A stretch of DNA of 64,000 nt. It comes from Bacillota bacterium. GTDB lineage: Bacteria; Bacillota; Limnochordia; Darwinibacteriales; Darwinibacteriaceae. The stretch is taken from assembly GCA_012838305.1 (NCBI GenBank), contig DUPN01000003.1, positions 29,335 through 93,334 on the forward strand, in the 5' to 3' direction. Below, piece after piece: positions 1-26,392 of the stretch. Each line of letters starts with the position of its first letter. Position 1 is the stretch's first letter. The notes beneath the pieces are model-generated. The model saw nothing but the letters and a program-made list of their open reading frames with translations. It ran no database searches and had not been told where the DNA came from. The position numbers and the translations under genes were made by a program.

Positions 1-617
1 GCGATGATCGCTATTTCTACATCGGCGAGGTGCAAACCAAGACCAACGAGCTGAAGAAGGTCCTTGTCTATGACTTGGGTACCAAAGGCTTCCCCAGCAT
101 TACCACGGCCCAGCGAGGCCTCTTTCAGGACCGGAGCTGGGTTCTATCCGATGGTGTCTATCAGGAACTGGATGAAGAAGGCTTTGTGCAGTTTGAAAGC
201 CGTTTTCAAAAGATGGAGATCACCACAGAGCAGGAAGGCGAAGTCTATCTGGGCAACCAGCGCACTACGGATGAGATGAACCGCCGCGAGCTGGCAGAAC
301 ATATCCAGCGCTTTCAGCGCGGTGGTTTGAAGGTACTCTACTTTGTCGTCGATTACCACATGAAACTGGCCTTGCCCATGGCTTCCTTTGTTTTTGCTCT
401 CTTTGCAGCTCCCTTAGCCCTGCTCGGCAAGGGGGGGCGTTCGTTTGGAGTTGTCTTGAGTTTGGTCATTTTACTTGTGTATTATGTGGGCATGTCGGTC
501 TCCCGTTCCATGGGAGTGAATGAGATGCTGCCGCCTGTGGTTGCGGCCTGGCTGGTTAACGCATTCTTTGCCCTTTCCGGGAGTATCTTATTGGTGGGCT
601 CCGATCGGCTGCGCTAG
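1..617 (+). CDS. LptF/LptG-family (YjgP/YjgQ) LPS export permease, C-terminal fragment; the 5' end lies outside the window
   Basis: The ORF runs to the window edge. The C-terminal hydrophobic segments (FVFALFAAPLALLG, VVLSLVILLVYYVGMSV, VVAAWLVNAFFALSGSILLV) are typical of LptF/G permeases, and it sits immediately upstream of lptD. Confidence 0.55.
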   Translation, partial: DDRYFYIGEVQTKTNELKKVLVYDLGTKGFPSITTAQRGLFQDRSWVLSDGVYQELDEEGFVQFESRFQKMEITTEQEGEVYLGNQRTTDEMNRRELAEHIQRFQRGGLKVLYFVVDYHMKLALPMASFVFALFAAPLALLGKGGRSFGVVLSLVILLVYYVGMSVSRSMGVNEMLPPVVAAWLVNAFFALSGSILLVGSDRLR

Positions 618-631
618 ATGGGGGAGGTTCC

Positions 632-2776
632 ATGGCTCGATGGGGAAAACGAGGCGTCTTAACAGCGTTCATCCTTGGTCTGCTGCTTCCTTGGCTTGCG
701 GTCTTCGCTTCTGAAGCCCAGGAGGGGGTGCGGGTTCGAGCCCAGCAGGCGGGGTCCTATGACTGGGAATCCCAGGTGTTTGTGGCCCAGGGAGAGGTGG
801 AGATCACCCATGGCGACTTACTGCTCACAGGTAACCTTCTGACCATGGATTTGAGCACAGGTGAAGTCCGCCTGGAGGGCGATGTCCGTATGGTCCAAGA
901 GGACCAGGAGCTTGAGGGGGATCTTCTGATCTATGATCTGGAGACGAAAAAGGGGAGAATGGACCAGGCTAGCGCGGAAGTGCTCTTGTCGTCCGGGACA
1001 GGGAGCATCTTTCTGTCCGGTGAGTCCGTGGGCCTAGCTGACGGGGCTTATAGCGTGCGCTCAGCCAAAGTGACCACTTGTGATGATCTGGACAGCCATT
1101 ACCACTTGGCCACCAAAGAATTGGAATATTACCCTGGGGATCGGGTGATCATCAGGGGCGTCACCTATTACGAGGGCAAGATACCCCTCTTTTACTGGCC
1201 TTACTTGGTGGTTCCCCTCGATAGGGATGGGACAAGCGTCTTTAACCTGCCCGTCTTTGGTTACAGCGAGCAGGAAGGGTATTACATGAAGAATTCCTTC
1301 AACTACCACCTTTCCTCCAAAGCCCATGGCCATCTCTATCTGGACTTGTACACCCGCTTAGGCCTGGGCCTAGGAGCCCGGCACATGTATGATCTGGGCC
1401 GTTTTGGTCAAGGTTCAGTTTACCTCTATGCCGTTCCCACCAGCGAGAGTCCTGTTCTGAAGAGTGCTTTTTCCCATCAATGGACCAAGGAACACTGGGA
1501 TTTTAAGACCACCACCAGCTATGAGAATTGGTGGGCTAAACATGAGCTGAAATCGGACAACCGCCTCAAGCTCACTCTGCCCAGCACAAACGCGGAGGCG
1601 TCCTTTGTCTACAAGAAGAACCCCGAGGCCACCATTTCGGAACAACGGGATATGGGGATCCGCTGGTCGCAGAATCTCACCGAGAGGTGGCGCCTGAACC
1701 TGCAGGGGTCCCGTATTGATCAAGTCAGGGGCGAGGACTCCTTGCGGCTGATCAGTTATCTAGCGGAGACGACCTATCGCCAAGACAGGCACACCCTTAC
1801 TCTCGCAGCCCAGCAGCAGTACAACCCCGACCTTTTAGAGGGTGAAACCCCGGCCTGGCGGACGGTGCAGCGACTCCCGGAGTTCAAATGGGTGGTGAGC
1901 AATTGGGGCCTGAACAGTCTGCCCCTGGGGACAGAGGTTATCTTGGGTCACTATGGGGAACGGCCGTCTACTGTCACCATGAATCGGGCCTTTGGCCAGC
2001 TCACCTTGGGCAGGCGATCCTGGCGCCCGGCAGAGCGCACCACCGTGGATTATCAAGGACTCTTGGGCGGAGCTCTCTATGGTGATGGGCAAAGACAGGC
2101 CTGGACCTTCGCCCGTCTGGGCTTGAATCAAAGACTGACGGATCGTCTCCAGTTCAGTTCCACCTATAGCCGCAGAGATGTGTGGGGCCATAGCCCCTTT
2201 CGCTTTGACGCCCAGCGGCCGCAGGAGGATCTTGGTTTGCGCCTAAGCTACTCTGCTCCGGCCTTGCGGGCCAGTTTGAACACGAACTACAACTTTCTCA
2301 CGGAGCGGTTTAGTGTGCTCACCTTAAGTACGTCCTGGCGGCCGAATTCTGCTTGGAATCTGAGCCTCTCCGCCGCATTTGATCTGAACAGCATGGAGCT
2401 CACTCGAGTGGTTCCCATGGTAGAATACAAAAAGGACCAGTTTGATCTGCGCCTTGCTGTCCGTTATCACCCCACGGATCAGGTGCTCGAACGTTTGGAT
2501 GCGCGCTTTACTCTGCCTGTGGGAACAACATGGCTTGTGAGCTATGATAGCATTTATGAGCCGCTGAAACAGGCGTTTTCCAAAGGCAGTGTCTCCATTA
2601 CCAAGGACTTGCATTGCCGAGAACTTCGCCTTTCCTATGATCATGTGGGAAAGAGTGTGGCCCTGCAATACACCATCAAGGCCTTTCCCACCTTGCCCAT
2701 TGGCTGGGACTCCCAGGGAGGCTTGAGTCTCTTTGACCTTGAGGATGTGGCGGACCTTGTTGGTGTGGAGGAGTGA
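632..2776 (+). CDS. lptD: LptD/OstA-family outer-membrane LPS assembly protein
   Basis: 714 aa with an N-terminal signal peptide (LLLPWLAVFASEA). It has an OstA-N-like jellyroll motif (LLTGNLLTMDLSTGEVRLEGDVRMVQ), a long beta-rich C-terminal region, and a GGAGG RBS. The lptF/G-lptD-lptC-lptA context supports the call. Confidence 0.6.
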   Translation: MARWGKRGVLTAFILGLLLPWLAVFASEAQEGVRVRAQQAGSYDWESQVFVAQGEVEITHGDLLLTGNLLTMDLSTGEVRLEGDVRMVQEDQELEGDLLIYDLETKKGRMDQASAEVLLSSGTGSIFLSGESVGLADGAYSVRSAKVTTCDDLDSHYHLATKELEYYPGDRVIIRGVTYYEGKIPLFYWPYLVVPLDRDGTSVFNLPVFGYSEQEGYYMKNSFNYHLSSKAHGHLYLDLYTRLGLGLGARHMYDLGRFGQGSVYLYAVPTSESPVLKSAFSHQWTKEHWDFKTTTSYENWWAKHELKSDNRLKLTLPSTNAEASFVYKKNPEATISEQRDMGIRWSQNLTERWRLNLQGSRIDQVRGEDSLRLISYLAETTYRQDRHTLTLAAQQQYNPDLLEGETPAWRTVQRLPEFKWVVSNWGLNSLPLGTEVILGHYGERPSTVTMNRAFGQLTLGRRSWRPAERTTVDYQGLLGGALYGDGQRQAWTFARLGLNQRLTDRLQFSSTYSRRDVWGHSPFRFDAQRPQEDLGLRLSYSAPALRASLNTNYNFLTERFSVLTLSTSWRPNSAWNLSLSAAFDLNSMELTRVVPMVEYKKDQFDLRLAVRYHPTDQVLERLDARFTLPVGTTWLVSYDSIYEPLKQAFSKGSVSITKDLHCRELRLSYDHVGKSVALQYTIKAFPTLPIGWDSQGGLSLFDLEDVADLVGVEE

Positions 2777-2815
2777 TCGATTCTGAAGACGAAGAGAGTT
2801 CTGATCGCTTTAACC

Positions 2816-3406
2816 GTGGTGGCGGCAGTCATCTACCTCGTTTTCCGTTCCTTCGTTCAACCTCCGCCGCCCCCTGTGGCTGTGCCCCCCAGTGTTCAGC
2901 TTCTAGAATCCAGGCTGATTGGGCGCCAGGACGGTGAGAGGCAGTGGGAGATTTTGGCGAAATCCGTGTTACAGACCGGTGATGTCGTGACCTTGACCGA
3001 TTTGGACGAGATCATCATGTTCCAGGATGGCGAACCCTATTTAGCGATTGACGCGGACAGAGCGATCTGGGATCGCACAAGAGATGTTTTGGAACTGCAA
3101 AACTCTGTGGTTGGCGATCTTGATGGAGGTTTTCGGCTAGAAAGTGATGTTCTGTTTTGGAATGGTACAGAGGAAACCCTCACATCGCCGGGTCCTGCTT
3201 TAATGCTGTGGGACGGCCTTGAGATCCGGGCCGCGGAAATGGTTTTGGAGTCAAAGGAGAATCTGCTGTATCTCAAAGGTGATGTGCAGATTCGGGACGG
3301 ATCCATGGCATGGATCGCAGAGCAGGCTGTCTATGACTTGGACCACGAACGTATGGATTTCTATGGGAGCTTGATTCTCAAACAGGAGGCAGAGGATGAT
3401 GAGTAG
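2816..3406 (+). CDS. lptC: LptC-like periplasmic LPS transport protein; start codon uncertain
   Basis: It has the size and position of LptC, between lptD and lptA, and overlaps lptA by 11 nt. The N-terminal hydrophobic anchor continues in frame upstream of the first canonical start (VLIALTVVAAVIYLVF), so a non-canonical start is possible. Confidence 0.45.
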   Translation: MVAAVIYLVFRSFVQPPPPPVAVPPSVQLLESRLIGRQDGERQWEILAKSVLQTGDVVTLTDLDEIIMFQDGEPYLAIDADRAIWDRTRDVLELQNSVVGDLDGGFRLESDVLFWNGTEETLTSPGPALMLWDGLEIRAAEMVLESKENLLYLKGDVQIRDGSMAWIAEQAVYDLDHERMDFYGSLILKQEAEDDE

Positions 3407-3962
3407 GAAGTTGGCAGCTTTGTTCATGCTTGCAGCTGTAGCCCTCGGGAGTTGTGGTGCGGTTGGGGCGCAAAGCCAGGTCGGGACGTTGGAAATCACG
3501 GGAGTTCCCCCAGAGATGTCCGCGGGACGCTATGATCGCCAGGCGGGAGTGTTTTTCGCCGATGTCCGTGAGATCCCAGGTGCTTTGATCACGGTCAAGC
3601 TGGAGGATGTCGAGGTAGTGGGGAAAACCCTGGAGTGGCGTACCGACGACAACTACTTGATCATGACCGTGGACGCTAGGCTCACCAAGGAAGACTTTAC
3701 GCTATCCGGCGATGTGGTGGAATACTTTGGTGAAACGAAGAGACTTGTGTCCGAGGGCCATGTGGAGGTGATGACGGAGGATGCCACCGTGTCTGCCGAT
3801 CATCTCGACTACGATGAAGAAACGGACCAAGCTCTGTTTACAGGTCAGGTAAAGGTGGTCTTTTCCGACGGGGTTCTCTCGGGTGAACGCTTCTTGATGC
3901 TGCTGGAGCAAAGCGAACTGCAGTTCTTTGGCTCCTTCCAAGGTGAGTTCAAGGACGAGTAG
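3396..3962 (+). CDS. lptA: LptA-like periplasmic LPS transport protein (OstA-N domain) with a signal peptide
   Basis: 188 aa with signal peptide MMSRKLAALFMLAAVALGSCGAVGA. It is beta-rich and lies downstream of lptC in the lpt cluster. Confidence 0.5.
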   Translation: MMSRKLAALFMLAAVALGSCGAVGAQSQVGTLEITGVPPEMSAGRYDRQAGVFFADVREIPGALITVKLEDVEVVGKTLEWRTDDNYLIMTVDARLTKEDFTLSGDVVEYFGETKRLVSEGHVEVMTEDATVSADHLDYDEETDQALFTGQVKVVFSDGVLSGERFLMLLEQSELQFFGSFQGEFKDE

Positions 3963-4022
3963 AAGTACAGTAATTTCTGACAATATTAACGGGCATTACC
4001 AGTTAAACCCCAGCTAGCGGCA

Positions 4023-4031
4023 TGTTATAAT
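4023..4031 (+). promoter_or_regulatory. Extended -10 promoter element (TGtTATAAT) upstream of the permease/ATPase pair
   Basis: tgttataat lies about 28 nt upstream of the ATG at 4059, which has a GGTGAGGAGG RBS. No good -35 element is present. Confidence 0.3.
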
Positions 4032-4058
4032 GGAAGCGCTAGGTGAGGAGGCGAGGTC

Positions 4059-6161
4059 ATGCTCGTTTTTTTTCGAGACGGTTTTTATAAAGACCTGGTT
4101 CTTTTGCTGGTCGTAACCGTAATGATTGGCGCGGTGTTTTCCCAGGGTGTGGCCTGGGCTATTGACACCTATTTTGGTGACACCCTGGATGGAATGATCG
4201 GCGAATATGGTGAATACGATTTGATTCTGCATATACGTGATGAAGCTAAAGAAGCGGCCTTAAGGGAACTTGAACGCATCGGTGAGCAGTCCTTTCCGGG
4301 ATACAGACTCAACCAGACCTTAACCATTGCTGGACAGGCGAACTTCTTTATTGGGCTACCGGAGGACTATCGTACCAAGGAGGTATTGGAGAGCATTACC
4401 TCCTATTTTGGCGCGGTTCCAGGTATAAACGGATATACTTTAATGGTGGAACCCAGTGTTTTGCTGCGGGGCGTGCACCCTGCTGTCCGGGATGAGCTGA
4501 AGGAACAGCTAGAGGATCTAAGGGATGTTCGATTTGTGGTCCAGGACGGTGTCAATCTCGTGGTTGTTCTGACCCGAGAAGACGCTGTGAGCGGAGTTAC
4601 AGCGGCCATTGAAGACATTCTGCAGCAATATCAGATTGTAGAGTTGCGCTTCCCCATGGGCTTTGAGGTGGACACCCGAGAGGTTGGCGAGAAGGCCATG
4701 GCTATCCTGCGCTCCCAAGAAGGGATGGGCGGAACGTACCGCAATGTTACCTCTGCGGAGTACGGGGAAGACTTAGATGCCTTTTTGAAGACCCTCGTGG
4801 AAATGCGGGACTTTTTGGGCAGCTACGCTTCGCAGGTTCGCATCGCCCCGGCCCCCGGCGTCCGGCTTATGGTGGGGGAGTGGATCCTTTTGGAGGACGA
4901 TATTACCGTGGAGATCACAGGGGTGTTCGGAGATTTGGTGGAGGGCATGATTGTGGAAGGATCTCCTGTGCAATCCACAGACACCGTAGTGTATCAGGGT
5001 TTTCGCCGGCTGGCAGAAGGGGAGCAGGGCGAATTTGTGGGCGACGTGGAGATTGAAAACGAGCGCTACCGCCTAGCTTATGCGGTGGATGAGAGTTTGC
5101 GGCTCTTGGCTGAGCTGGAGGAGTTGTCGGTGCAGGCAAGTACCGCTGTGGACAACGCCGATGCGGTCTTGACCACCTTCCAGGAGGCTTTGATGCAGCT
5201 GGAAGTGCTGCAAGTGCAAATGCGCCAGCTCAATGAGGGCATAGCCACAGGCGAGGCCAAGTCTTCGGGGGAGCAGTTTCTAGTCAGCCTGCTTCTAAAT
5301 GGACTCTTCCAGACCTTAGCCCAGGGAGTTATTCATTCTGGGGAGGAGTCGTTGGATTCCCTGGAACACCTAGATATTGAAGCCATGCGCAACAGTCTGA
5401 GTGGAATCAGCGAGCAAATCGCCAATGTGCAGGAAATTGATGTGACTGCAATTATGGAGCAAATTGGCTTTGTCCGAGATACACTCCCCAATCTCAATGA
5501 CGCGGAAATCGGACAGTCTATCCGCCTGATCAACACCTATTTGGGGGGTCAGGTGATCCCCGGAGAGCGGGTACAGCTGCTCCTTGAGGGGGGTCGGGTG
5601 GATGAGAAGGCCTTGGAGAAGCTGTTTCAAAAAGAACTTGAAAACCCCTATCTGCACACCTATTCCACATCGGTGGGCATGGTGTCCCCCGATGCCAGGG
5701 GCGAGATTTTCCGCATTCTGAAAGAGGTTCGTTCCATTGTGGCCGGGATACTGTCCATCATCTTTACCGTCATGGTCCTGGTTTTGGACCATGCCACCAT
5801 CTTCAGCACCCTTAAGCATCTGCTGGCTTCCAGGAAGCCCCTGCGGTCCCTGTGGCGGCGTCTGCTGAATCCCATCCTGATCTTAGGGGGAACGCTCGGA
5901 GCCTTTCTTCTCACGAGTGTTTACTATCTGTCACGATCGCAGATTCCCTACTTCCAGTGGCCCGCCGTGGTGGTTTTAGGCTTTGTCCTGGGGGTGCTGA
6001 TTGTGGTCTTTGCCGAACGCTTCAGTCCGGTGGACAGTATGGAACTCATGGCCGCGCAGTCCCTAGGTCTCTCCAATTGTGAAATCATGCGGGAAGTGGT
6101 GATTCCCCCGAGTCGCCCGGGGCTAATGGTGATGCTCAATCGTTTCAAGAAGCAATTCTAG
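4059..6161 (+). CDS. Atypical ABC-transporter permease: an N-terminal TM helix, an ectodomain of about 530 aa with a coiled-coil segment, and a C-terminal 3-TM bundle ending in an EAA-loop-like motif
   Basis: The N-terminal TM is LVLLLVVTVMIGAVF. The large hydrophilic domain includes the coiled-coil stretch LRLLAELEELSVQ...LQVQMRQLNEG. Three C-terminal TMs are followed by MAAQSLGLSNCEIMREVVIPPSRPGLM, which resembles the EAA loop of type-I importer permeases (compare MetI EAAESMGASP..IPEALPAL in this same window). It is immediately followed by an ABC ATPase. Confidence 0.5.
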   Translation: MLVFFRDGFYKDLVLLLVVTVMIGAVFSQGVAWAIDTYFGDTLDGMIGEYGEYDLILHIRDEAKEAALRELERIGEQSFPGYRLNQTLTIAGQANFFIGLPEDYRTKEVLESITSYFGAVPGINGYTLMVEPSVLLRGVHPAVRDELKEQLEDLRDVRFVVQDGVNLVVVLTREDAVSGVTAAIEDILQQYQIVELRFPMGFEVDTREVGEKAMAILRSQEGMGGTYRNVTSAEYGEDLDAFLKTLVEMRDFLGSYASQVRIAPAPGVRLMVGEWILLEDDITVEITGVFGDLVEGMIVEGSPVQSTDTVVYQGFRRLAEGEQGEFVGDVEIENERYRLAYAVDESLRLLAELEELSVQASTAVDNADAVLTTFQEALMQLEVLQVQMRQLNEGIATGEAKSSGEQFLVSLLLNGLFQTLAQGVIHSGEESLDSLEHLDIEAMRNSLSGISEQIANVQEIDVTAIMEQIGFVRDTLPNLNDAEIGQSIRLINTYLGGQVIPGERVQLLLEGGRVDEKALEKLFQKELENPYLHTYSTSVGMVSPDARGEIFRILKEVRSIVAGILSIIFTVMVLVLDHATIFSTLKHLLASRKPLRSLWRRLLNPILILGGTLGAFLLTSVYYLSRSQIPYFQWPAVVVLGFVLGVLIVVFAERFSPVDSMELMAAQSLGLSNCEIMREVVIPPSRPGLMVMLNRFKKQF

Positions 6162-6173
6162 AGGAGTGTTCAT

Positions 6174-6902
6174 GTGCTGCAGATTCAGGGTTTACGCAAA
6201 TCGTATGGAAAACTCGTGGCACTTGATGGGGTAGACTTGACGGTAGAAAAGGGGGAGACTGTTGTGATCATGGGTCCGTCCGGCTGCGGCAAGTCTACCC
6301 TGATCCGTTGTGTCAATCGTTTAACTGAGCCCGATGAGGGTACCATCTTGCTGCAGGGGCAGAATGTATTGGAACTTGGCCACATCGAGCTCCAGGACCT
6401 CAGGCGCAAGGTTGGTTTTGTATTTCAGCAGTTCAACCTGATCAGTCGCCTCACGGTCTTGGATAATGTCATCTTCCACCTTGTCCTCGGGGGCATGGAC
6501 CGCGATCAGGCCGCGACCAGAGGGCGCAGGGTTTTGGCCCGGGTGGGCCTGGCCAATACGGAGGATCGCCGACCCCATGAGTTAAGCGGCGGTCAGCAGC
6601 AGAGGGTGGGCATTGCCAGGGCTTTGGTAACCAATCCCGAGATCATGCTTTGGGATGAACCCACAGCCTCTTTAGATCCGATCTTAGTGGGTGAGGTCCT
6701 GGAAGTGATGGAGGAGCTGGTGAAAACAACATCGACCACCATGGTCATCGTCACCCATGAGGTGTCCTTCGCCCTCAGGGCGGCGGAGCGTATTGTGTTT
6801 ATGGACAAGGGTCAAATCGTGGAAGAAGGACGGCCCCAGGAGGTCTTGGCCAATCCTCAATCCGAAATCGCCTGCCTGTACAGGAAACTTTTGGTGCAGT
6901 GA
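6174..6902 (+). CDS. ABC transporter ATP-binding protein (polar amino acid/phosphonate importer-type NBD)
   Basis: Walker A is GPSGCGKST, the ABC signature is LSGGQQQRVGIARAL, Walker B is MLWDEPTASLD and the H-loop is VTHE. It has a GTG start with a GAGGAG RBS. Confidence 0.8.
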   Translation: MLQIQGLRKSYGKLVALDGVDLTVEKGETVVIMGPSGCGKSTLIRCVNRLTEPDEGTILLQGQNVLELGHIELQDLRRKVGFVFQQFNLISRLTVLDNVIFHLVLGGMDRDQAATRGRRVLARVGLANTEDRRPHELSGGQQQRVGIARALVTNPEIMLWDEPTASLDPILVGEVLEVMEELVKTTSTTMVIVTHEVSFALRAAERIVFMDKGQIVEEGRPQEVLANPQSEIACLYRKLLVQ

Positions 6903-6995
6903 CGAGTTTGGGCGTCAAAAGAGGAAATGGAAACTCTGTGCCGAAAGTTGTATCAGCGCAGTTATGGCTTTCCTGGCCAAAAAGGAGTGAGACCT

Positions 6996-7451
6996 TTGTC
7001 AGAAGGACAGCTAGAAGAGCTCTCCATTGATCAGATTCGAAACCTCCTGCCCCATCGGTATCCTTTTTTGCTGGTGGATCGGGTCTTGGAGCGTGAAGAA
7101 GGTCACAGAGTTGTTGCTCTCAAGAATGTCACAATCAATGAGCCCTTCTTCCAGGGACATTATCCCCAAACTCCGGTGATGCCCGGGGTCCTCATCGTGG
7201 AGACCATGGCGCAGGTGGGGGGGTTGGCGGTGCAAGAAACGCCCCATGATCAGATCCTGCCCCTGCTTGCTGCCATTGAGAAGGTGCGTTTTCGCGAAGT
7301 GGTCAAGCCCGGCGATCAGCTGGTGGTTGAAGCTACCGTGAAGGCCAGCCGGGCAGGGATCGTGAAGATTGCAGCTGAAGCCAGAGTAGATGCAAAGGTT
7401 GTAGCTCAAGGCGAATTGACATTTGCCCTTGTGTCCAGGAGGGATAGTTAG
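6996..7451 (+). CDS. fabZ: 3-hydroxyacyl-ACP dehydratase FabZ
   Basis: The hotdog-fold motif is LPHRYPFLLVDRV...FFQGHYP..PVMPGVLIVETMAQ. The probable start is TTG at 6996 after an AAAGGAG RBS; the longer ORF from 6927 is unlikely. Confidence 0.85.
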   Translation: MSEGQLEELSIDQIRNLLPHRYPFLLVDRVLEREEGHRVVALKNVTINEPFFQGHYPQTPVMPGVLIVETMAQVGGLAVQETPHDQILPLLAAIEKVRFREVVKPGDQLVVEATVKASRAGIVKIAAEARVDAKVVAQGELTFALVSRRDS

Positions 7452-7454
7452 GCT

Positions 7455-8612
7455 ATGAGTAAGATCATGATGATTGGCGGAGACAACACCAGTGACCGTT
7501 TTGGTTCGGCTTTAGCCCGGAAGGTACTGGAGAAATGCCCCCAAGCGAAACTCTTTGGAGTGGGTGGACCCCTGATGAATGACGCCGGGGTACGCCTGCT
7601 TTATGATATCTCGGAACAGGTGAGTTTGGGGATTTTCCAATCTGTAAAGGGTTCTTTGGTGGTCAAACGTATGCTGAAGCGGATTGCAGAAGCCATGACC
7701 CAAGAGGAACCGTCTCTGGTGATGCAGATCGGCTTACCCGTCTTTGGTTACCGGCTCCTTGAGATTGCCCGGGGGAAAGGGATCCCTGTTTTGTATTATT
7801 ACACGCCTTTGAGCCGCGGTTTGCGCAATGTCAAGGCCAGCCACTTCCCTACGGTTGTGGATAAAGTGGCTGGTATAAGCCATTTTGAGGTGGCTCAGTG
7901 CCAAGAAGCGGGCCTGGATTGCGAGTTTGTGGGACACCCCTTGATGGACTTGACCGATTTCTCCATGACACCTCAGGAAGCCAGGGCGAAGCTTGGTATC
8001 GCTTCGGAAGAGACCCGGATTATTGCTGTTTTGCCTGGCGCCCGGGAAGTGGAAGTGCGCAACGCCCTGCCTAGCGTACTAAAGGCCCTGGATGAGGTGT
8101 TGGAGCGCCACGAGGATGTGCAGATTATTGTTTCCGCCGCTCCCACCATTCGCAGTGTACTCATGGATGAGATCTTAAAAAAATCGGCTCGAACAGTGCG
8201 CGTGGAGCGACATACCTACCTTGTGCTGCGATCGGCGGATGTGGCCGTCACCTCCATTGGTACAAGCTCTCTGGAGGCTTCTTTGCTGGGAGTCCCGTCG
8301 GTGGCTGTCTACCGTGTGCCCTGCACCACATATTTCACCGAGAAATTGCTGGATCGTAAGCCCAATATGACAATAACCAATAATGTCTTGCGAAAGAGTG
8401 TAATACCCGAGTTTATTCAGGGCGACTTTGTCCCCAGTAAGATCGCGCAGGCCATTGAGAACCTGCTCTATAATGAGCAGGCCAGACAGGCGATGCTGGC
8501 GGAGTTTGCCAGTCTTCCAGATCAGCTGGGTAAACCAGGTTCGCTGGAACGCGCTGCCGCTCTTGTGGTGGATATGGCTGGGTGTGACGACGATGACACA
8601 ATTAGTAGCTGA
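7455..8612 (+). CDS. lpxB: Lipid-A-disaccharide synthase LpxB
   Basis: The N-terminus MSKIMMIGGDNTSDRFGSALARKV...FGVGGPLM is a glycosyltransferase family 19 pattern. The 385 aa length fits, and it follows fabZ as in lipid A clusters. Confidence 0.8.
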   Translation: MSKIMMIGGDNTSDRFGSALARKVLEKCPQAKLFGVGGPLMNDAGVRLLYDISEQVSLGIFQSVKGSLVVKRMLKRIAEAMTQEEPSLVMQIGLPVFGYRLLEIARGKGIPVLYYYTPLSRGLRNVKASHFPTVVDKVAGISHFEVAQCQEAGLDCEFVGHPLMDLTDFSMTPQEARAKLGIASEETRIIAVLPGAREVEVRNALPSVLKALDEVLERHEDVQIIVSAAPTIRSVLMDEILKKSARTVRVERHTYLVLRSADVAVTSIGTSSLEASLLGVPSVAVYRVPCTTYFTEKLLDRKPNMTITNNVLRKSVIPEFIQGDFVPSKIAQAIENLLYNEQARQAMLAEFASLPDQLGKPGSLERAAALVVDMAGCDDDDTISS

Positions 8613-9318
8613 GAAGCTTGTGAAGGCCTATGGCCAGCGTACGGTGGTTCAGAATGTGGATTTTGAGGCGAGCCGCGGAGAAATTGTGGGTCTTTTGGGA
8701 CCCAATGGCGCGGGGAAAACAACAACCTTCGGTTTGATTATTGGCCTGGGTAAGCCCAAGAGCGGACGCATTTTCCTGGATGGCCGCGATATTACGGAGC
8801 TGCCCATGCACAAGCGTACCCGTCTCGGTCTGGGCTACCTGCCGCAGGAGCCGTCGGTATTTCGCAAGCTGACTGTGGAAGAGAATGTGCAGGGAGTGCT
8901 CGAACTGCGTCGAGACGTATCCCGGGACGAGCAGGCGCATCGTCTAGCCGATCTGATGGAGGAGTTCAACTTACGTGAGGTGCGGCATCAAAAGGGTTAC
9001 CAGTTGTCCGGGGGCGAGCGTCGCCGTACTGAAATAGCCAGGGCACTGGCTCTAGATCCCGCTTTTTTGTTTCTGGACGAACCTTTCGCGGGGGTCGATC
9101 CCATTGCAGTGGCGGAGATTCAGGCCATCATTGCCCGCCTGCGCTCACGGAACTTAGGCATTATTATTACAGATCATAATGTCAGAGAGACACTGCGGAT
9201 TACCGATCGGGCCTATATTATGCATCTGGGGGAGATTCTTGTTTCCGGCTCCACGGAGGATTTGGCCCAAAACCCACTGGCCCGCAAGTATTACCTCGGA
9301 GCCAATTTCTCTCTGTAA
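8593..9318 (+). CDS. lptB: LPS export ABC transporter ATP-binding protein LptB
   Basis: It begins MTQLVAEKLVKAYGQRTVV. Walker A is GPNGAGKTT and the signature is LSGGERRRTEIARAL. The true ATG at 8593 overlaps the end of lpxB; the upstream part of the 8428 ORF is spurious. Confidence 0.75.
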   Translation: MTQLVAEKLVKAYGQRTVVQNVDFEASRGEIVGLLGPNGAGKTTTFGLIIGLGKPKSGRIFLDGRDITELPMHKRTRLGLGYLPQEPSVFRKLTVEENVQGVLELRRDVSRDEQAHRLADLMEEFNLREVRHQKGYQLSGGERRRTEIARALALDPAFLFLDEPFAGVDPIAVAEIQAIIARLRSRNLGIIITDHNVRETLRITDRAYIMHLGEILVSGSTEDLAQNPLARKYYLGANFSL

Positions 9319-9329
9319 GGAAAGAAGGT

Positions 9330-10463
9330 GTGCAGGCCATGTATGGTTTTACCCTTATCTTGACCTTGGTCATTGTCGGCGGGGTGATTGCCTACATTGG
9401 CGATCGCTTGGGAATGCACGTTGGCCGTAAAAAGCTAACGTTATTTGGTCTGCGCCCCAAACATACCAGTATTGTAGTGACAATTGTCACAGGTATCCTT
9501 ATTTCCGCCGCGTCCATCGGCGTTTTATCCATCGGTTCGTCTGATGTGCGCACTGCTCTTTTCAATATGAAGGCAATCCAAGATGAGCTGCGAGGGATCC
9601 AGCGTGACTATGTGGTCATGAAGGGTCAGAGGGATGCAGCTCAAGTCGAGTTGGAGCAGGTCGAGGCGAGCTATCAGGAGATTACAGCTCTCCTTTTGGA
9701 AGCGGAGTCTACAGTGGATGCCCTGCAGAGACAGGCTGTGGTCCTCACGGAGGAAGTGGAAGAACTGGAGGCCAGAACCGAGCAGCTGCGGTCATCCTAC
9801 GCCCTCCTGGAAGAGAACTACGACCTTGTGGCCACGGCCTGGGGCCAGATTCGGGCGGGGAACATTGCCTTTAACGCCAGCGAAGTCATTTTGACCACTG
9901 TGATCAGAAAGGGTCTTGGCCGGGAGGAGGTCCGTGCCCACCTCGAGCGTTTCATGGAGGAAGTGGATGATGTGGCTTACCTTCGCAGTGCCAGAGCCCC
10001 AGAATCCGACACCTACAGGGCCATTTTTCTGCAGCCGGGTGTGCTAGATATGGCGGTGGAATCGGTCCTCTTGTCTCCAGGGGATGTCATCGTCCGGGCG
10101 GTAAGCGAGGGCAATAGTATTCCTGGGGTGCCGGTCTTGGTATACTTAGAGAATTTCCGCGATCAGATGGTCTTTTCCCAGGGAACTGTGTTGGCCTCCA
10201 GCCGGTGGGATCCTAGGGAAGGGATGGAGATTGATCGTGTGATCCTGCTCATGCTCAATGAAGCGCACAGCAATGCCATTAATGCCGGCATGGCCATCAG
10301 CCGGGAGCGGGGAGATGCAGTCTTACTTCCCGGTGACAGTTTCCGCGATGCTATCTTTGCCTCCAGAGACATTGAAGAATCCGTGGAAGTGCGGCTGGTG
10401 GTGGCCGAAGATACCTGGCGTTCGGAAACACCTGTTGAATTGTATCTCGAACTGGTTTTCTAA
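9330..10463 (+). CDS. Membrane-anchored coiled-coil protein, DUF3084-like
   Basis: It has an N-terminal TM (FTLILTLVIVGGVIAYIG), a long coiled coil (QDELRGIQRDY...LEEN) and a C-terminal globular region. The architecture matches DUF3084; the family assignment is from memory, not a search. Confidence 0.4.
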   Translation: MQAMYGFTLILTLVIVGGVIAYIGDRLGMHVGRKKLTLFGLRPKHTSIVVTIVTGILISAASIGVLSIGSSDVRTALFNMKAIQDELRGIQRDYVVMKGQRDAAQVELEQVEASYQEITALLLEAESTVDALQRQAVVLTEEVEELEARTEQLRSSYALLEENYDLVATAWGQIRAGNIAFNASEVILTTVIRKGLGREEVRAHLERFMEEVDDVAYLRSARAPESDTYRAIFLQPGVLDMAVESVLLSPGDVIVRAVSEGNSIPGVPVLVYLENFRDQMVFSQGTVLASSRWDPREGMEIDRVILLMLNEAHSNAINAGMAISRERGDAVLLPGDSFRDAIFASRDIEESVEVRLVVAEDTWRSETPVELYLELVF

Positions 10464-10545
10464 GGTTCCAGCAAATGTCAAACTGCCTTTAGAAGGAATT
10501 TCTCGCTGGATATGGAATTTTGGTATCGCCATCATCCTTGTTCTA

Positions 10546-10554
10546 TGCTACAAT
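10546..10554 (+). promoter_or_regulatory. Candidate extended -10 element (TGcTACAAT) at the start of a ~300-nt leader upstream of ompM
   Basis: tgctacaat sits inside a 385-nt intergenic region and has no convincing -35 element. Confidence 0.25.
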
Positions 10555-10848
10555 CAAATGTGGGAGGCATATTCTTCCAACGCCGCAACCTGAGAAAAAG
10601 ATCCAGCTCTGAGAAGGAATTGGGAGATGTGTGGAGAATGTCTTCTAATACGGTATTGTTTTCAGTATCTTACAAGTTAGGACGGTCAGAAAGGAGGTGC
10701 CCGCGGTTTCCGTCGACTGGGGATACTGAAAGATGAACACACTCTTGTCATGCCTGAAGCTGAGGGAACAAGGAGACTCAAAAGATAGCAAACAAGAGGG
10801 TTTTCATCAACACATACATCAAAAACGAACCTAAACCAAGGGGGTAAA

Positions 10849-13038
10849 ATGAATATGAAAATGAAGAAGCTTGCTTTAGTACTAGTCGTTGTTTTGATGG
10901 CTAGTGCAGCAATGCCCGCAATGGCCAGCCCATTCGCAGATGTTCCTGCTGATCACTGGGCCTATGATTCCGTAGCGGAATTGGCTGCTGCAGGTTTGAT
11001 TGAAGGATATCCAGATGGAACCTATGGCGGTTCCAGAATGATGACTCGTTACGAAGCTGCTATGGTATTTGCCAGAGCGCTCAATCGTCTCGAGAGTCAA
11101 ATCGCCAACAACAACCTTCTACCAGAGCTTGACAAGATCAAGGCTGAACTCATGGCTGAGATTGAAGCACAGATGGCTGCTGCTGACAAGCCTGTTGTAG
11201 AAACCATTGAAACCAAGGTAATTGAGCAGCGCATCGATGAACAAGCACTTGCTCGCATCCGTGCCAACGAGATCGCCATCGACGCACTCGAAGGCGACAT
11301 GGCCTACCTGGAAGCCAGAATGCTTGGTTTGATTGATGGCATTCGCTTCGACATGAACCAACTCGAAGAGCAACAGGTAACAGGTGTAGAACCACCTTCC
11401 ATGGATGAAATCGAAGCTTTGATTGCTGCTAGAATCCAAGAAAGCCTTTTGGATGTTGCCAGCGGCGTTAAAGAGACCACCATCGTGGAGAGGGTTGTTT
11501 CCACCACTCCTGAGATGACCAAGCAAGATGTGGAGTTCATCGCCGAAGCACTCATCCGTGAGCAGGTTCAAGGTGTTGAGCGCAAAGTTCAAGAGAACAG
11601 AGACCTCATCGTTGGCCTCGTTGACTGGGTTGATGAGCTTGACGCAGATGTGACCGTTCTCAAAGACGATGTTGCAGGTTTGAAGGCATCTGTTGCTGAT
11701 CTGGAGAAAGCCCCCAGACTCAGCGGTGACTTAACTCTGAAGGGTGAATACAAGCTGCCAGATGGCGCTGACGAGAAAGAATATGTTCTCACCCAGACCG
11801 GTGCTCTTACACTGGGCATCAAGGCCTCTGACACCACCAATGTTAAGGCTATTTTGGGATTCAAGGTTGCTGCAGGTAGCCTGGTAGACGAATTAACAAA
11901 CTACCGCGTGGAAGTGGATTCTACCACACCCATCAGCAAAGTGGTTGTAGGGAAAATTGCTAAGGGTAATCTCTCTCCCTACGTCGACCGTTACGTCCTT
12001 GCCTCCAACGACCATGCCTTTGGCGGACTGGGCAAGATCAACATTATGGATGATCTGACACTGGATCTCTTTGTTGGTCAGAAAGCTGTTGGAGCACATG
12101 AGAATATGCAGGCTGCAGCGGCGCTGCAGTACAAGTTCATCCCTGAACTTGGTCTGAGACTGTCCGGTGCTCTCCAGAAACCAACCGGTGAGATGTTTGT
12201 GAACTATGCAGCTGGTATCGGCCTCTTTGGTGAAGTAGCCGGTGTTACCTATGCTGGTGACTTTGCCATGGACTTCAATGCAGATGAGAAAAACTTCATC
12301 GGCGTTCTTGAGGCCGAAACAACCTTGGATCCTGTGACCCTTGATCTGAAGGGAATCTACCAGGGAGAAAACTACGCCATCAGAAACCTGCTAGTTAACA
12401 CCGATAATGCCTTTGCTGTTGAAGGCGGCCTCAAGGCTGGTCTCAAAGATCTGCTCGGTTTCGATGCCAACCTCGGCGGTCGTGCCTACTATGAAGGTGC
12501 CATTGGTGCAGAGGAAGGAGATCCTGATACCTCGATTATAGCCTTCAAGCTGGATGCAGACGCAACCTTTGATGTATTCGTACCTGTGACCATTGAAGGT
12601 CGCTTCGTAGGTAACATCACCGGCGGCGCAGACATGGAAAGCAATATCTTTGCCAAGTTGTCCGCTGCACAGAAGGGCGACTACGGACTTCGCTACGGTG
12701 CATATGCTTCCTACGAGAAGAATGTCCTGACGGATGTTAAGTGGAAAGATGTTGCTAAGTTTACAGGTAACGACGATGCGAAGTTTGGTGCTAATGTAGG
12801 TTATGGTGTCGACTGGAGCGGTGCGAAAGTTGACCTCGACTACAATGCTGACTTTGTATTGCCAATCGTACCCGAAGGCGATCCAGAGAGAGACATGACC
12901 CTCACCAACAAACTGGTTGTTGGCTACGGCTTTACCAACAATGTCAAGCTCACCTTTGGTGCGAGTGTCAAGTCAACGTTCAGCGATCCTCTCGCCAACC
13001 GCTTCTTCTACGATGCAGGTTTGACAGTTAAGTTCTAA
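10849..13038 (+). CDS. ompM: OmpM-type outer-membrane porin with an N-terminal SLH domain, a coiled-coil stalk and a C-terminal beta-barrel
   Basis: It has a signal peptide and the SLH motif FADVPADHWAYDSVAELAAAGLIEGYPDGTYGG..MTRYEAAMVFARAL. A coiled-coil region of about 200 aa is followed by an alternating amphipathic beta-strand region that ends with a terminal Phe (LTVKF). Confidence 0.85.
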   Translation: MNMKMKKLALVLVVVLMASAAMPAMASPFADVPADHWAYDSVAELAAAGLIEGYPDGTYGGSRMMTRYEAAMVFARALNRLESQIANNNLLPELDKIKAELMAEIEAQMAAADKPVVETIETKVIEQRIDEQALARIRANEIAIDALEGDMAYLEARMLGLIDGIRFDMNQLEEQQVTGVEPPSMDEIEALIAARIQESLLDVASGVKETTIVERVVSTTPEMTKQDVEFIAEALIREQVQGVERKVQENRDLIVGLVDWVDELDADVTVLKDDVAGLKASVADLEKAPRLSGDLTLKGEYKLPDGADEKEYVLTQTGALTLGIKASDTTNVKAILGFKVAAGSLVDELTNYRVEVDSTTPISKVVVGKIAKGNLSPYVDRYVLASNDHAFGGLGKINIMDDLTLDLFVGQKAVGAHENMQAAAALQYKFIPELGLRLSGALQKPTGEMFVNYAAGIGLFGEVAGVTYAGDFAMDFNADEKNFIGVLEAETTLDPVTLDLKGIYQGENYAIRNLLVNTDNAFAVEGGLKAGLKDLLGFDANLGGRAYYEGAIGAEEGDPDTSIIAFKLDADATFDVFVPVTIEGRFVGNITGGADMESNIFAKLSAAQKGDYGLRYGAYASYEKNVLTDVKWKDVAKFTGNDDAKFGANVGYGVDWSGAKVDLDYNADFVLPIVPEGDPERDMTLTNKLVVGYGFTNNVKLTFGASVKSTFSDPLANRFFYDAGLTVKF

Positions 13039-13063
13039 GAACTTAGCTCCCAGAGAAACACAA

Positions 13064-13090
13064 GGTCCTCCTGAGGGAGGACCTTTTTTT
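13064..13090 (+). terminator. Rho-independent terminator of ompM
   Basis: The stem is GGTCCTCC-TGAG-GGAGGACC and is followed by TTTTTTT. Confidence 0.7.
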
Positions 13091-13634: not shown

Positions 13635-14891
13635 ATGCACAGAAGTCTACGGTTTGCTGCGGTTTTCTGTATGCTTTTGCTGCTTAGTCATGGTGTTTTG
13701 GCCAACTCTCCTTCAGGCTCATCCCTGCTGTCACAGGACTGGGCCGATCTGGCCATTGAAGAATTGGGAAGGGATCGGGGAATACCTGATTTTGACATTC
13801 CTGCCCAGCCCAACCGGAATCAAAGGGCTCTTTTGGTCGCCCGTCTTCTGCAGCATTTGAGCGGCGAGGATCATCTCCAATCGCGCCGCTTCGGCGTGAG
13901 CAAGAATGTTTATTTGGACAATATGATCTTCACCTACAATCAGCGAGTGGTACCTGAGATGGCCCTCACCGTAAGCCAAGTGGAGGCCCTTTACAGGCTG
14001 GTCTTGGAGTTCAGCGACGAGCTGGAGATCTTAGGCTATGCCATCCAGGACTTCAACCTCCTCCAGTCCGAGGGATTTGTGGAGCAGCAGGAAGGCCTGT
14101 TTGCCAACCGCAACCTGCTCTATTCTGAACAGGCGCTGTCCGCCGCCCGCAAGCGTGACGAACAGCGAACGGCTGTGCAGAGCGTTGAGGTGGTTGCTGC
14201 ACCTGAAACAAGCATTGCCGAGATCATTCCTGAACCTGTTCGACCCCGCAACCTCTGGACGGGCCAGTTTTCTCCTGTGACCCGCACGCTGCCGCCGTCT
14301 TCAAGTATTGTGGCTCAAGAATCCCTGGCGGAACAGAGTCGACCCCTTTCCCTTGGGGGCTTTGAAGTCACAACCGCATTGCGGCCTGCCCCTTCCGGAA
14401 GTCAGAGTAGTATAGAGAGCTCGAGTTCCAGTACAGCCGAAGGAGGTGGCTATGGTATTGCGCTGCGCATGGGCGATGTGGCCTTGCGCACAGATCTGGC
14501 TCTGAATCCCGAGAAGGTGAGCACATCCGTCGATTTGAGCTGGGCATGGGCGGATCTTTTTACACTGAGCGCGGGTTACAGGCAGGGCCTCAGACTCAAG
14601 GAGGACGCGGAGTCCGAGGACGAAGCCCCCGTTGTTGCTTCTCTGGGAGTGGTGGTCCCCCTCAATCGGGGACAGGTACATTTAGGCATGACCCAGGAGT
14701 GGAATTTTGCAGATCTAGAAGGAAATCCCATGCGCCCTGGTGAACTAGGTATGGGTACCAGTACTGCCGAGCTTGGGTTGAGCTATGACCTCAAAAACGA
14801 CAGTTCGCTGCGGTTTAACTACCGATTCATTGACTTTAGCAATATGGAATCAGGCACGGAAGCGGAAGCCGCTTTTTCTATCAAGTTTTGA
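13635..14891 (+). CDS. Putative outer-membrane beta-barrel protein with a degenerate N-terminal SLH-like segment (an OmpM paralog?)
   Basis: It has a signal peptide and an SLH-like stretch (DWADLAIEELGRDRGIPDFDIP...RALLVARLL). The C-terminal beta-rich region ends in a terminal Phe (FSIKF), and there is a GAGGAGGAG RBS. Confidence 0.45.
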   Translation: MHRSLRFAAVFCMLLLLSHGVLANSPSGSSLLSQDWADLAIEELGRDRGIPDFDIPAQPNRNQRALLVARLLQHLSGEDHLQSRRFGVSKNVYLDNMIFTYNQRVVPEMALTVSQVEALYRLVLEFSDELEILGYAIQDFNLLQSEGFVEQQEGLFANRNLLYSEQALSAARKRDEQRTAVQSVEVVAAPETSIAEIIPEPVRPRNLWTGQFSPVTRTLPPSSSIVAQESLAEQSRPLSLGGFEVTTALRPAPSGSQSSIESSSSSTAEGGGYGIALRMGDVALRTDLALNPEKVSTSVDLSWAWADLFTLSAGYRQGLRLKEDAESEDEAPVVASLGVVVPLNRGQVHLGMTQEWNFADLEGNPMRPGELGMGTSTAELGLSYDLKNDSSLRFNYRFIDFSNMESGTEAEAAFSIKF

Positions 14892-15844: not shown

Positions 15845-15954
15845 GGGTTGCGATCGTTGTGAGCCAGAGAACCGGGGTCCGCAAGGTTCCGCGGTTCTTG
15901 TCTTACAGCGGCCGGTGCAGTCTATCTCAAATTGATCTGAGGTGTCAAAGTGCG

Positions 15955-18633: not shown

Positions 18634-18636
18634 GAG

Positions 18637-20091: not shown

Positions 20092-20803
20092 ACCCAAGAA
20101 ACGAAGTCGTGACCGCCATGGTCACTTGATCGTTCAAACGGATCCCAAAGCAATTGCGAGCGAGGCATTTCGCTCCCTTCGTACAAACCTGCAGTTCAGC
20201 AGCGTTGATCAGCAGCTGAAAACGATTCTGTTTACCAGTCCAGGACCGGGGGACGGCAAGTCAACTGTCGTTTCGAACCTTGCTGTGGCTTGGGCCCAGT
20301 CGGGTCAGCGGGTGGTCTTAGTAGGCTGTGATCTCAGAAAACCTGTACTGCACAGGATCTTCCCCATGAGCAACACCCCTGGTTTGACCGGTTACTTGAC
20401 TGGCCAGGCCAGCTTGGAGGAAATTATTGTGCCCAGCAGAGAGGTTTCCAGTCTAGATCTGATACCCTCAGGCCCTGTTCCGCCCAGCCCTGCGGATCTA
20501 CTGCAATCGAGGGCTATGATAGATGCCATTGCCGAGCTAAGGGAACGCTATGACCTGGTCTTATTTGATGGAACTCCTGCCGTGGCGGTAACGGATGCGG
20601 TGGTCATTGCCAATCAGGTCGATGGCACAGTCTTGGTTGTCCGTGCCAATGAAGTGCCGAGGGATGTCGCCCTCCATGCAAAGCAGGTTTTGGAGCAGGC
20701 CAATGCCAGGATTTTGGGTGTCGTTTTGAACGGGGTCAACCCGAAAGGGCAAAGCGACTATCACTATTACTATTACTATTATTACAATGCGGAGCGAGCC
20801 TAA
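20075..20803 (+). CDS. Capsular/EPS tyrosine-protein kinase (CpsD/YwqD/CapB-type BY-kinase) with a poly-tyrosine C-terminal tail
   Basis: Walker A is SPGPGDGKSTV and Walker A' is VVLVGCDLR. The C-terminal Tyr cluster is YHYYYYYYYNAERA. Confidence 0.8.
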   Translation: MSSVRRPKKRSRDRHGHLIVQTDPKAIASEAFRSLRTNLQFSSVDQQLKTILFTSPGPGDGKSTVVSNLAVAWAQSGQRVVLVGCDLRKPVLHRIFPMSNTPGLTGYLTGQASLEEIIVPSREVSSLDLIPSGPVPPSPADLLQSRAMIDAIAELRERYDLVLFDGTPAVAVTDAVVIANQVDGTVLVVRANEVPRDVALHAKQVLEQANARILGVVLNGVNPKGQSDYHYYYYYYYNAERA

Positions 20804-26265: not shown

Positions 26266-26392
26266 GAATAGGCTCATCAAGAGTGGCGGAGGGACTGGCC
26301 CAATGAAGCCCGGCAACCAGTGGAATGCTTTTTCACCAGGTGCTAATTCCTGCAAAGCTACTGTTCGGTAGTTTTGGCCGATGAGGGTGGAT
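26266..26392 (+). promoter_or_regulatory. SAM-I (S-box) riboswitch aptamer upstream of metK
   Basis: CTCATCAAGAGTGGCGGAGGGACTGGCCCAATGAAGCCCGGCAACC ... GGTGCTAATTCCTGCAAAG ... GATGAG (the P1 3' strand) matches the S-box consensus. Confidence 0.8.

Follow-up and report, generated by a model that had tools for sequence, protein, structure and literature searches.

A probable reduced variant of the diderm-Firmicute outer-membrane cluster in an uncultured Bacillota bacterium from anaerobic digesters

The cluster and its surroundings

The DNA considered here is a stretch of 64,000 nucleotides from contig DUPN01000003.1 of an uncultured Bacillota bacterium (the window), and it opens with genes for the biogenesis of an outer membrane (OM). 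At a probability of roughly 0.8, bases 1-13,090 are the downstream two-thirds of an OM biogenesis cluster from an anaerobic-digester organism that belongs in or next to the class Limnochordia, and they represent a reduced variant of that cluster, not a complete locus for lipopolysaccharide (LPS). An earlier reading of the letters, made without database searches (the sequence-only reading), had called the locus complete and, by implication, its owner LPS-containing. This is not supported, since five lipid A genes with fixed positions elsewhere are absent and the lpxB homologue lacks the predicted catalytic base. The combination of OM genes with Firmicute features is not new, and the locus is a reduced variant of a known cluster.

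The genes that had been listed from the letters alone, namely a partial lptF/G, lptD, lptC, lptA, fabZ, an lpxB homologue, lptB and a gene for an SLH-domain protein, are real and stand in the order in which they had been given (Table 1). The list was short of three others: a 700-residue membrane protein (p700), a second ABC ATPase next to it and a DUF3084 protein. The lptF/G open reading frame (ORF) is cut by the window edge, and its full length of 358 aa is seen in exact-match contigs (L007-L009). Upstream of the gap that precedes ompM, all gene junctions measure 96 bp or less. The cluster from bamA/skp through the DUF3084 gene is one tightly packed operon, and ompM is separately transcribed and terminated. 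The 385-bp gap is likely the promoter region of ompM itself; the one promoter-like match within it, at 10526-10554, is not above chance for the region. The gene order is conserved in four related loci (L003-L006) and in ‘Peptococcaceae bacterium 1109’ (L012), and the position of the DUF3084 gene after lptB is conserved also in Carboxydochorda, L015 and L017.

The 10 kb on the 5' side of the window was read from three independent assemblies of the same organism (L007-L009, 1-9986). The order there is an M23 peptidase gene, spoIIID, mreB/mbl, NAGPA, a spoIVB-like S55 peptidase gene, bamA, a small ORF, ompH/skp, a 198-aa ORF and lptF/G. The bamA gene (POTRA and Omp85 domains) and ompH/skp are thus situated 1-5 kb upstream of the window. 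Acetohalobium has a YjbH-like ORF after lpxD, and the 198-aa ORF beside lptF/G is homologous to it (28% identity, E=2e-17).

Table 1. Features of the OM cluster and of the wall-polymer genes, in window coordinates
Feature	Position	Strand	Evidence
lptF/G, 3' part (C-terminal 204 codons)	3-617 (ORF open at window edge, 1..617)	+	Pfam LptF_LptG E=3e-40
LptD-like, 714 aa	632-2776	+	Signal peptide; LptD_N 22.1 bits vs cutoff 20.4
lptC	2816-3406	+	Pfam LptC 26.8 bits vs cutoff 21; TIGR04409 37.9 bits
lptA, 188 aa, signal peptide	3396-3962	+	Pfam LptD_N/LptA 31 bits; TIGR03002 E=2e-7
p700 membrane protein, 700 aa	4059-6161	+	No Pfam/NCBIfam match at default thresholds
ABC ATPase, partner of p700	6174-6902	+	ABC_tran E=6e-41
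fabZ	6996-7451	+	TIGR01750 183 bits vs cutoff 155
LpxB-like GT19 glycosyltransferase	7455-8612	+	Pfam LpxB E=9e-55; TIGR00215 181.5 vs cutoff 190.25 (below)
lptB	8593-9318	+	TIGR04406 348 bits vs cutoff 240
DUF3084 membrane protein, 2 transmembrane helices and coiled coil	9339-10463	+	Pfam DUF3084 E=2e-31
Non-coding gap ahead of ompM, 385 bp	10464-10848	+	Gap table
OmpM/SlpA-type SLH protein, 729 aa	10849-13038	+	Pfam SLH E=2e-11
Strong intrinsic terminator after ompM, 10-bp stem then T-run	13062-13085	+	
csaB and tagA/wecG	49793-51641	+	TIGR03609 CsaB 238 bits vs cutoff 213; Pfam PS_pyruv_trans, Glyco_tran_WecG

Comparison with the clusters of other diderm Firmicutes

Two reference loci show the cluster in its fuller form. 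In Carboxydochorda subterranea L945 (CP141615.1:2711871-2734774), the order is bamA, ompH, lpxD, two small ORFs, lptF/G, a gene for an 800-aa LptD-like protein, lptC, lptA, a p700-ATPase fusion (967 aa), lpxC, fabZ, lpxA, lpxI, lpxB, a second GT19 gene, msbA, an epimerase gene, lptB and the DUF3084 gene. In Acetohalobium arabaticum of the Halanaerobiales (CP002105.1:2295216-2316064), it is tamB, bamA, ompH, an ORF, ompH, lpxD, the YjbH-like ORF, a gene for an 810-aa p700 homologue, an ABC ATPase gene, lpxC, fabZ, lpxA, lpxI, lpxB, msbA, a DUF374 gene, lpxK, kdsB, kdsA and kdsD. The metagenomic lineages L010, L013, L015 and L017 keep the adjacency of p700, ABC ATPase and lpxC, and the three with contigs that extend further (L010, L015, L017) continue with fabZ, lpxA and lpxI. 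A Firmicute-type cluster that may be of the Negativicutes type (L097; Ga0256405_10000095, 117050-137883) reads tamB, bamA, ompH, lpxD, lpxL, lpxC, lpxA, lpxI, lpxB, msbA, waaA and kdsB. There lpxL leads directly to lpxC without the p700/ABC pair, and fabZ is not adjacent.

The window locus shares with the diderm-Firmicute OM cluster (Antunes 2016, PMC5007114; Taib 2020) its backbone and order, a single LptF/G and an OmpM as the putative tether. With the genes that are absent here placed in brackets, the backbone runs bamA, ompH, (lpxD), small conserved ORF(s), lptF/G, LptD-like, lptC, lptA, p700/ABC, (lpxC), fabZ, (lpxA, lpxI), lpxB, (msbA), lptB and DUF3084. The window locus differs in that lpxK, waaA and kds were not seen in the region surveyed, tamB is not adjacent and the LpxB homologue is without D98. 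It also differs from Carboxydochorda in having p700 and the ATPase as separate genes in place of one fused protein.

The missing lipid A genes and the LpxB-like enzyme

The five missing genes, lpxD, lpxC, lpxA, lpxI and msbA, are absent from three separate conserved slots, at which the junctions are 3-93 bp long and every flanking gene has been kept. The lpx genes sit at homologous positions in L010, Carboxydochorda (L014), L015, L017 and Acetohalobium (L019), and the same reduced backbone is present in the window organism and in five relatives (L003-L006 and ‘Peptococcaceae bacterium 1109’). Because five genes with fixed slots in other diderm Firmicutes are absent here, the locus is considered a reduced variant. 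The sequence-only reading had proposed a search for lpxACD, kdsAB, bamA and tamB. In the 74 kb made up of the window and the 10 kb upstream of it, bamA was found, together with skp, and no lpxA, lpxC, lpxD, lpxH/I, lpxK, lpxL, waaA, kdsA-D, msbA or tamB; for tamB this includes the upstream 10 kb itself. Set against the pathway for lipid A and 3-deoxy-D-manno-octulosonic acid (lpxACDIBK, waaA, kdsABCD, msbA), these 74 kb hold only fabZ and the lpxB homologue.

The product of the lpxB homologue aligns end to end with E. coli LpxB (PDB 5W8S) at E=1e-31 and is a member of the GT19 fold and family, but its active site is altered and its score stays below the TIGR00215 equivalog cutoff. With residue roles taken from PMC5785501 (Table 3), the active-site alignment places Gly93 at the position of D98 (predicted to act as the catalytic base), Asp10 at E15 and Thr12 at S17. 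The last two lie in the motif GE[AT]SGD, which is replaced by GDNTSD. A further difference from the E. coli enzyme (PDB 5W8S; PMC5785501) is the change of S200 to Ala, and what the two proteins have in common, besides their end-to-end homology, are the donor-side residues P198, G199, R201, T277 and E281. The changes at D98, E15 and S17 are common to all of the clade members aligned (4/4), each from a cluster without lpxC, lpxA, lpxI and lpxD; the lpx-complete Firmicute lineages aligned (5/5) have the canonical active site, as does E. coli. The protein is termed LpxB-like, and not LpxB, because these three residues are not conserved.

The divergence of the clade's LpxB is not shared by its neighbors. 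The clade proteins are 24-34% identical to other Firmicute LpxBs, which are 36-48% identical among themselves, and a neighbor-joining tree puts them on a long branch outside all canonical LpxBs. The ABC ATPase, p700, LptB, LptF/G and FabZ of the same clade are not identity outliers. The second GT19 paralogue of Carboxydochorda was considered as a possible orthologue of the LpxB-like protein and rejected, as the protein scores 41 bits against it and 163 bits against the canonical copy.

These observations raise the question of whether the clade still makes lipid A. The clade, a group of abundant digester Bacillota that comprises the window organism, UBA5420, UBA5493, the AS21 and AS23 metagenome-assembled genomes (MAGs) and ‘Peptococcaceae bacterium 1109’, could have lost the canonical (Raetz) pathway while keeping an OM, BamA/Skp, OmpM, the Lpt bridge and a re-tooled LpxB-like enzyme. 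It would then be an LPS-free diderm Firmicute or one with a non-canonical glycolipid, with its Lpt bridge and its altered GT19 enzyme now given over to another amphiphile, either a different glycolipid or lipoproteins as in Borrelia. Such a loss is a tentative possibility that falls somewhat short of an even chance. The emptied slots with all their flanking genes kept, the same state in five relatives, the altered active site in all four clade members aligned against a canonical one in the lpx-complete lineages, the outlying identity of LpxB and the lack of kds, waaA and lpxK within the 74 kb all speak for it, and a precedent exists in the LptD homologue of LPS-free Borrelia, as cited in PMC13018214.

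However, purifying selection acts on the Lpt genes and the lpxB-like gene, all of them intact, and the evidence covers 74 kb of a 2.9-Mb genome. OM markers are also reportedly present in all UBA Limnochordia (Taib et al., as summarized in PMC11456536). A search seeded with the LpxC of L013, in which the best 120 of 1634 matches were considered, was uninformative, the LpxCs of Limnochordia being mutually only 41-45% identical. When metagenomes were scanned with an LpxC alignment, identity to the query was 43-51% in the best 80 loci, and neither GC nor tetranucleotide correlation linked any of these to the window clade. On balance, we lean slightly toward the missing lipid A steps being encoded elsewhere in the genome, perhaps with a canonical lpxB among them.

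The question matters because diderm Firmicutes are a test bed for the origin of Gram-positive bacteria by OM loss. The diderm state of a digester lineage is expected from the work on Limnochordia. If the lipid A genes are truly gone, the loss of LPS can precede the loss of the OM, with Lpt retained, and an LPS-free diderm clade would be an intermediate state relevant to OM loss in Bacillota.

The Lpt bridge

The C-terminal barrel of LptD has 26 strands in E. coli and 16 or 26 in A. longum. The LptD-like protein of the window joins an N-terminal OstA jelly-roll to a C-terminal part of about 515 aa that is rich in beta structure and of beta-amphipathic composition; the LptD barrel family of Pfam has no match in the protein. 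The NCBIfam LptD model matches with E=1e-12 over residues 29-270 only, and a profile search of the PDB returned LptD structures (7omm, E=3e-8; 8h1r, E=4e-7). Orthologues occupy the same slot in L012-L015. The Lpt set as defined in PMC5007114 is present: LptB, two proteins of about 200 aa with an OstA domain, and one LptF/G. To have just one LptF/G is the usual state in diderm Firmicutes (PMC5007114). In the window and its surroundings, the upstream 10 kb included, no homologue of LptE was found, and LptE is missing in other diderm Firmicutes as well (PMC5007114, PMC5491611).

Going by what is known of these families, LptB2 and a homodimer of the single LptF/G would extract a glycolipid from the inner membrane, and this would be handed along the jelly-roll bridge of LptC, LptA and LptD into the OM. 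BamA and Skp would be responsible for the insertion of barrel proteins.

A conserved ABC pair in the cluster

The p700 protein has one transmembrane (TM) helix (TM1), an ecto-domain of about 515 aa, three C-terminal TM helices and a C-terminal EAA-like coupling motif. In an AlphaFold2 (AF2) model (predicted local distance difference test, pLDDT, 73), the ecto-domain consists of tandem ferredoxin-like domains and long helical hairpins. The tail motif, E-x-MAAQSLGLS-x5-REVVIP-x3-PG, resembles the EAA coupling loop of type-I ABC importers. A weak BPD_transp_1 match covers this part of p700, and six of ten distant homologues have sub-threshold BPD_transp_1 matches over exactly this region. Membership in the BPD_transp_1, FtsX/MacB or MlaE permease families was not found for p700, and a Foldseek comparison with solved structures gave no global match. 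The best NCBIfam matches of the neighboring ATPase are of the GlnQ/TcyN/MetN type. Its identification as an LptB was rejected, given that its 25 best NCBIfam matches include no LptB.

In four distant homologues (P0454, P0464, P0477 and P0492), including WP_324716177.1 of Carboxydochorda, p700 is fused to the ATPase, so the two window genes can be taken to encode one transporter. When 1.84 billion representative proteins were searched exhaustively by profile, the family came to only 239 clusters at 50% identity, and the named members sampled came from Firmicutes, Bacillota, Clostridia and Limnochordia, with one Syntrophothermus MAG. In all complete loci of the Halanaerobiales or Limnochordia type that were examined, the pair stands immediately upstream of lpxC, and a p700-family gene is found just upstream of lpxC in at least 18 further metagenomic LpxC loci.

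We infer that p700 and the ATPase form an ABC machine related to envelope lipids. As a further transporter of the ancestral cluster, it would move or sense such a lipid. Mla is reported absent from Halanaerobiales and sparse in Limnochordia (bioRxiv 10.1101/2023.06.30.547184), and a lipid-trafficking role for the pair is therefore an attractive hypothesis. Envelope ABC systems of the MlaFE, MacB and FtsEX type share several traits with the pair: an ATPase that is separate or fused, four TM helices, of which TM1 and TM2 are long and stalk-like and stand on either side of a large ecto-domain, and, for p700, a place among OM lipid genes. In contrast to them, p700 belongs by sequence to none of these families, its C-terminus carries an EAA-like motif of type-I importers, the ATPase resembles GlnQ/MetN, and neither an MCE partner nor a global structural match was seen. 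As far as the literature found shows, the family is uncharacterized. The pair is a concrete new candidate for the handling of envelope lipids in Terrabacteria.

The putative OmpM/SlpA-type tether and its likely ligand

The SLH-domain porin of OmpM type, with a barrel ending in Phe, that had been recognized from the letters alone is borne out by domain search and modeling. After a signal peptide, the protein has its SLH domain at residues 28-71; residues 67-287 are helical, residues 290-728 form a beta-barrel, and the C-terminus reads ...LTVKF. Its SLH domain carries W37, G53 and TRYE (66-69), and W, G and TRAE-type motifs are known from SLH domains whose ligands are secondary cell-wall polymers (SCWP) (PMC10628300). 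In a profile search of the PDB, the SLH domain matches OmpM of Veillonella parvula (8bys/8bz2, E about 1e-15), and residues 20-218, which cover the SLH domain and the stalk, match SlpA of Deinococcus radiodurans (7zgx, E=1e-14). An AF2 model built with 30 homologues gives the barrel a pLDDT of about 88 and 24 strands by DSSP. The helical stalk of about 220 residues has low pLDDT in the monomer, which is to be expected of a monomer model if the stalk is a trimeric coiled coil. A Foldseek search with the model matched nothing but OM barrels, among which 24-strand ushers had the best TM-scores. The architecture is thus of the OmpM type, and the size is closer to SlpA than to the 16-strand OmpM of Negativicutes. 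The barrel of D. radiodurans SlpA reportedly has 30 strands.

Residues 1-295 (SLH domain and stalk) are about 93% identical to the protein of UBA5493 (L005, 13387-15582), compared with about 50% for the barrel. From this pattern, the periplasmic tether seems to be strongly constrained and the surface-exposed part to evolve fast.

OmpM1 of V. parvula (PDB 8BYS, 8BYM, 8BZ2; PMC10628300) has the same signal peptide, SLH domain with the W, G and TRYE motifs, helical stalk and barrel. It differs in being about 430 aa long, with 16 strands and a short coiled coil, against 729 aa, a stalk of about 220 aa and some 24 predicted strands here. SlpA of D. radiodurans (PDB 7ZGX; PMC9388160) shares the SLH domain, a long helical stalk, here a probable coiled coil, and a large barrel. 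However, SlpA is larger (1167 aa, with a larger barrel), and no similarity between the barrel sequences was detected.

The homologue, probably a trimer, would span the periplasm by its long stalk, and its SLH domain would fasten the OM to the wall, where its most likely partner is a pyruvylated SCWP made by the csaB-tagA genes of the same window. Since the window encodes CsaB next to TagA/WecG, the likely ligand is such a polymer, as in Deinococcota and Cyanobacteria, and not polyaminated peptidoglycan. The SLH ligand in the SlpA group is a pyruvylated wall polymer (PMC10628300), whereas Negativicutes bind polyaminated peptidoglycan. These genes belong to a run at 47561-51641, right after prfB, that encodes an LmeA-like protein, a DUF5693 protein, CsaB and TagA/WecG and probably directs the synthesis of the pyruvylated wall polymer to which the SLH domain of OmpM would bind. 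The presence of csaB/tagA together with an SlpA-like OmpM bears on a question raised by Witwinowski et al., namely the binding partner of OmpM in Limnochordia.

Beyond the cluster, a secreted protein of 418 aa (p418; 13635-14891) has a conserved helical N-terminal domain and a beta-amphipathic C-terminal part of about 150 aa that ends in FSIKF. Conserved copies are present in UBA5493 and Peptococcaceae bacterium 1109, and the protein, which has no Pfam match, is probably a small OM barrel. The idea that it might be a second SLH/OmpM paralogue was rejected, as no SLH similarity was found.

Taxonomic placement and remaining alternatives

The relatives of the window organism carry Firmicute names. 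A scan of species-representative genomes with LpxB returned four loci only, recorded as Firmicutes bacterium UBA5420 and UBA5493 and as Bacillota bacterium AS21ysBPME_46 and AS23ysBPME_360. The records of p700 and OmpM homologues carry the names Limnochordia bacterium, Ca. Darwinibacter acetoxidans (78%) and Peptococcaceae bacterium 1109 (59%). In all three assemblies read, two sporulation genes, spoIIID and the spoIVB-like gene, directly adjoin bamA-skp together with mreB/mbl. The diderm-Firmicute signature of Limnochordia type that had been proposed is supported by these names and sporulation genes, by SecA and by synteny with Carboxydochorda subterranea, a cultured diderm member of the Limnochordia. 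SecA, one of the proteins suggested for placement, scores best against that of B. subtilis (1009 bits, followed by E. coli with 901, Thermus with 896 and Thermotoga with 854; pairwise bit scores).

Limnochordia are the third diderm Firmicute lineage (Taib 2020, as summarized in PMC11456536), and that paper describes Carboxydochorda subterranea as diderm by transmission electron microscopy. The diderm state of a Limnochordia-type lineage is therefore the correct reading but already known at class level. A paper that names close relatives (Ca. Darwinibacteriales; MBA03/DTU010) makes no mention of an outer membrane or LPS (PMC12663870), and in the supplements of PMC11448272 Limnochordia are represented by L. 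pilosa only.

An origin in a classical diderm phylum such as Synergistota, Cyanobacteria or Deinococcota, where the gene content would be unremarkable, was the outcome that the sequence-only reading had named as fatal to its proposal, and it is by now largely refuted and very improbable. Proteins with SLH domain, coiled coil and barrel, and CsaB, are indeed found in Cyanobacteria and Deinococcota too, and residues 27-125 of the SLH protein weakly match the por_somb iron uptake porin model NF033921 (42 bits vs cutoff 100). Against this stand the sporulation genes next to bamA, relatives deposited as Firmicutes or Limnochordia, collinearity with both Carboxydochorda and Acetohalobium, the single LptF/G, the SAM-I riboswitches, the comF-hpf-secA-prfB order and the closeness of SecA to that of B. 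subtilis.

It is just as improbable that the cluster is decaying toward a monoderm envelope and that its genes are pseudogenes in the making. The lpx genes are gone from it, as such decay would have it, but all ORFs are intact. The dN/dS relative to UBA5493 (L005) is about 0.1-0.2 for every cluster gene, lptD-like and ompM included, and about 0.1 for lpxB-like, so none of the cluster genes is decaying. The p700 protein (77-81% identical in relatives, the most of any large protein of the cluster) and its ATPase (80-83%) are the best conserved.

Least probable of all is a recent horizontal acquisition of the OM genes by a monoderm Firmicute, or an assembly chimera with one, for which nothing specific can be cited beyond the slightly lower GC of the ompM region (0.49-0.50, in a window of about 0.54). 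The same order occurs in at least six related assemblies at 55-85% protein identity, the backbone is common to Halanaerobiales, and a 2.9-Mb contig is recorded as carrying an identical p700 protein. Identical OmpM, LptD-like and p700 proteins are present in JGI, ENA, Logan and NCBI assemblies, including a 633-kb contig of GCA_050952205.1; this contig is one of the three independent assemblies of the same organism that show the order, and a chimeric contig is unlikely because these three agree.

The reading of the locus as a reduced Limnochordia-type cluster has its own weak points, and the following weigh against it. The family matches of LptD, LptC and LptA are weak. The class assignment rests on the record names of relatives, synteny and sporulation genes. 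For the OmpM homologue, both the trimeric state and the SLH ligand are putative. Lastly, the absence of lpx genes applies to 74 kb, and the remaining genome may hold an intact lipid A pathway or none at all.

Other features of the window

The Firmicute hallmarks that had been read from the letters are present. There are two SAM-I (S-box) riboswitches, of 97 and 74 bits, at 26271-26387 (+) and 35344-35456 (-), and metK is in the window, as is metNIQ on the minus strand. The genes comFC, a comFA-like helicase, hpf, secA and prfB were all confirmed, as were the tyrosine kinase and phosphatase, which are a split BY-kinase and a CpsB phosphatase of the PHP type. The region 15859-21570, to which a kinase and phosphatase of this kind belong, starts with a Wza/OPX-type polysaccharide exporter (924 aa, Poly_export and nine SLBB repeats), after which come a Wzz/GNVR protein, a BY-kinase encoded as a protein of its own and a PHP phosphatase of the CpsB type. 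It pairs a Gram-negative-type OM exporter with a split kinase and phosphatase of Firmicute type.

Two large ORFs have no Pfam match, one of 689 aa at 28932-31001 and one of 665 aa at 41890-43887. The latter lies between a Mur-ligase-like gene and secA and breaks the hpf-secA order. The prfB gene (46419-47502) has the canonical +1 programmed frameshift site, CTTTGAC, at 46473, and its first 19 codons are read in another frame, from a GTG at 46419.

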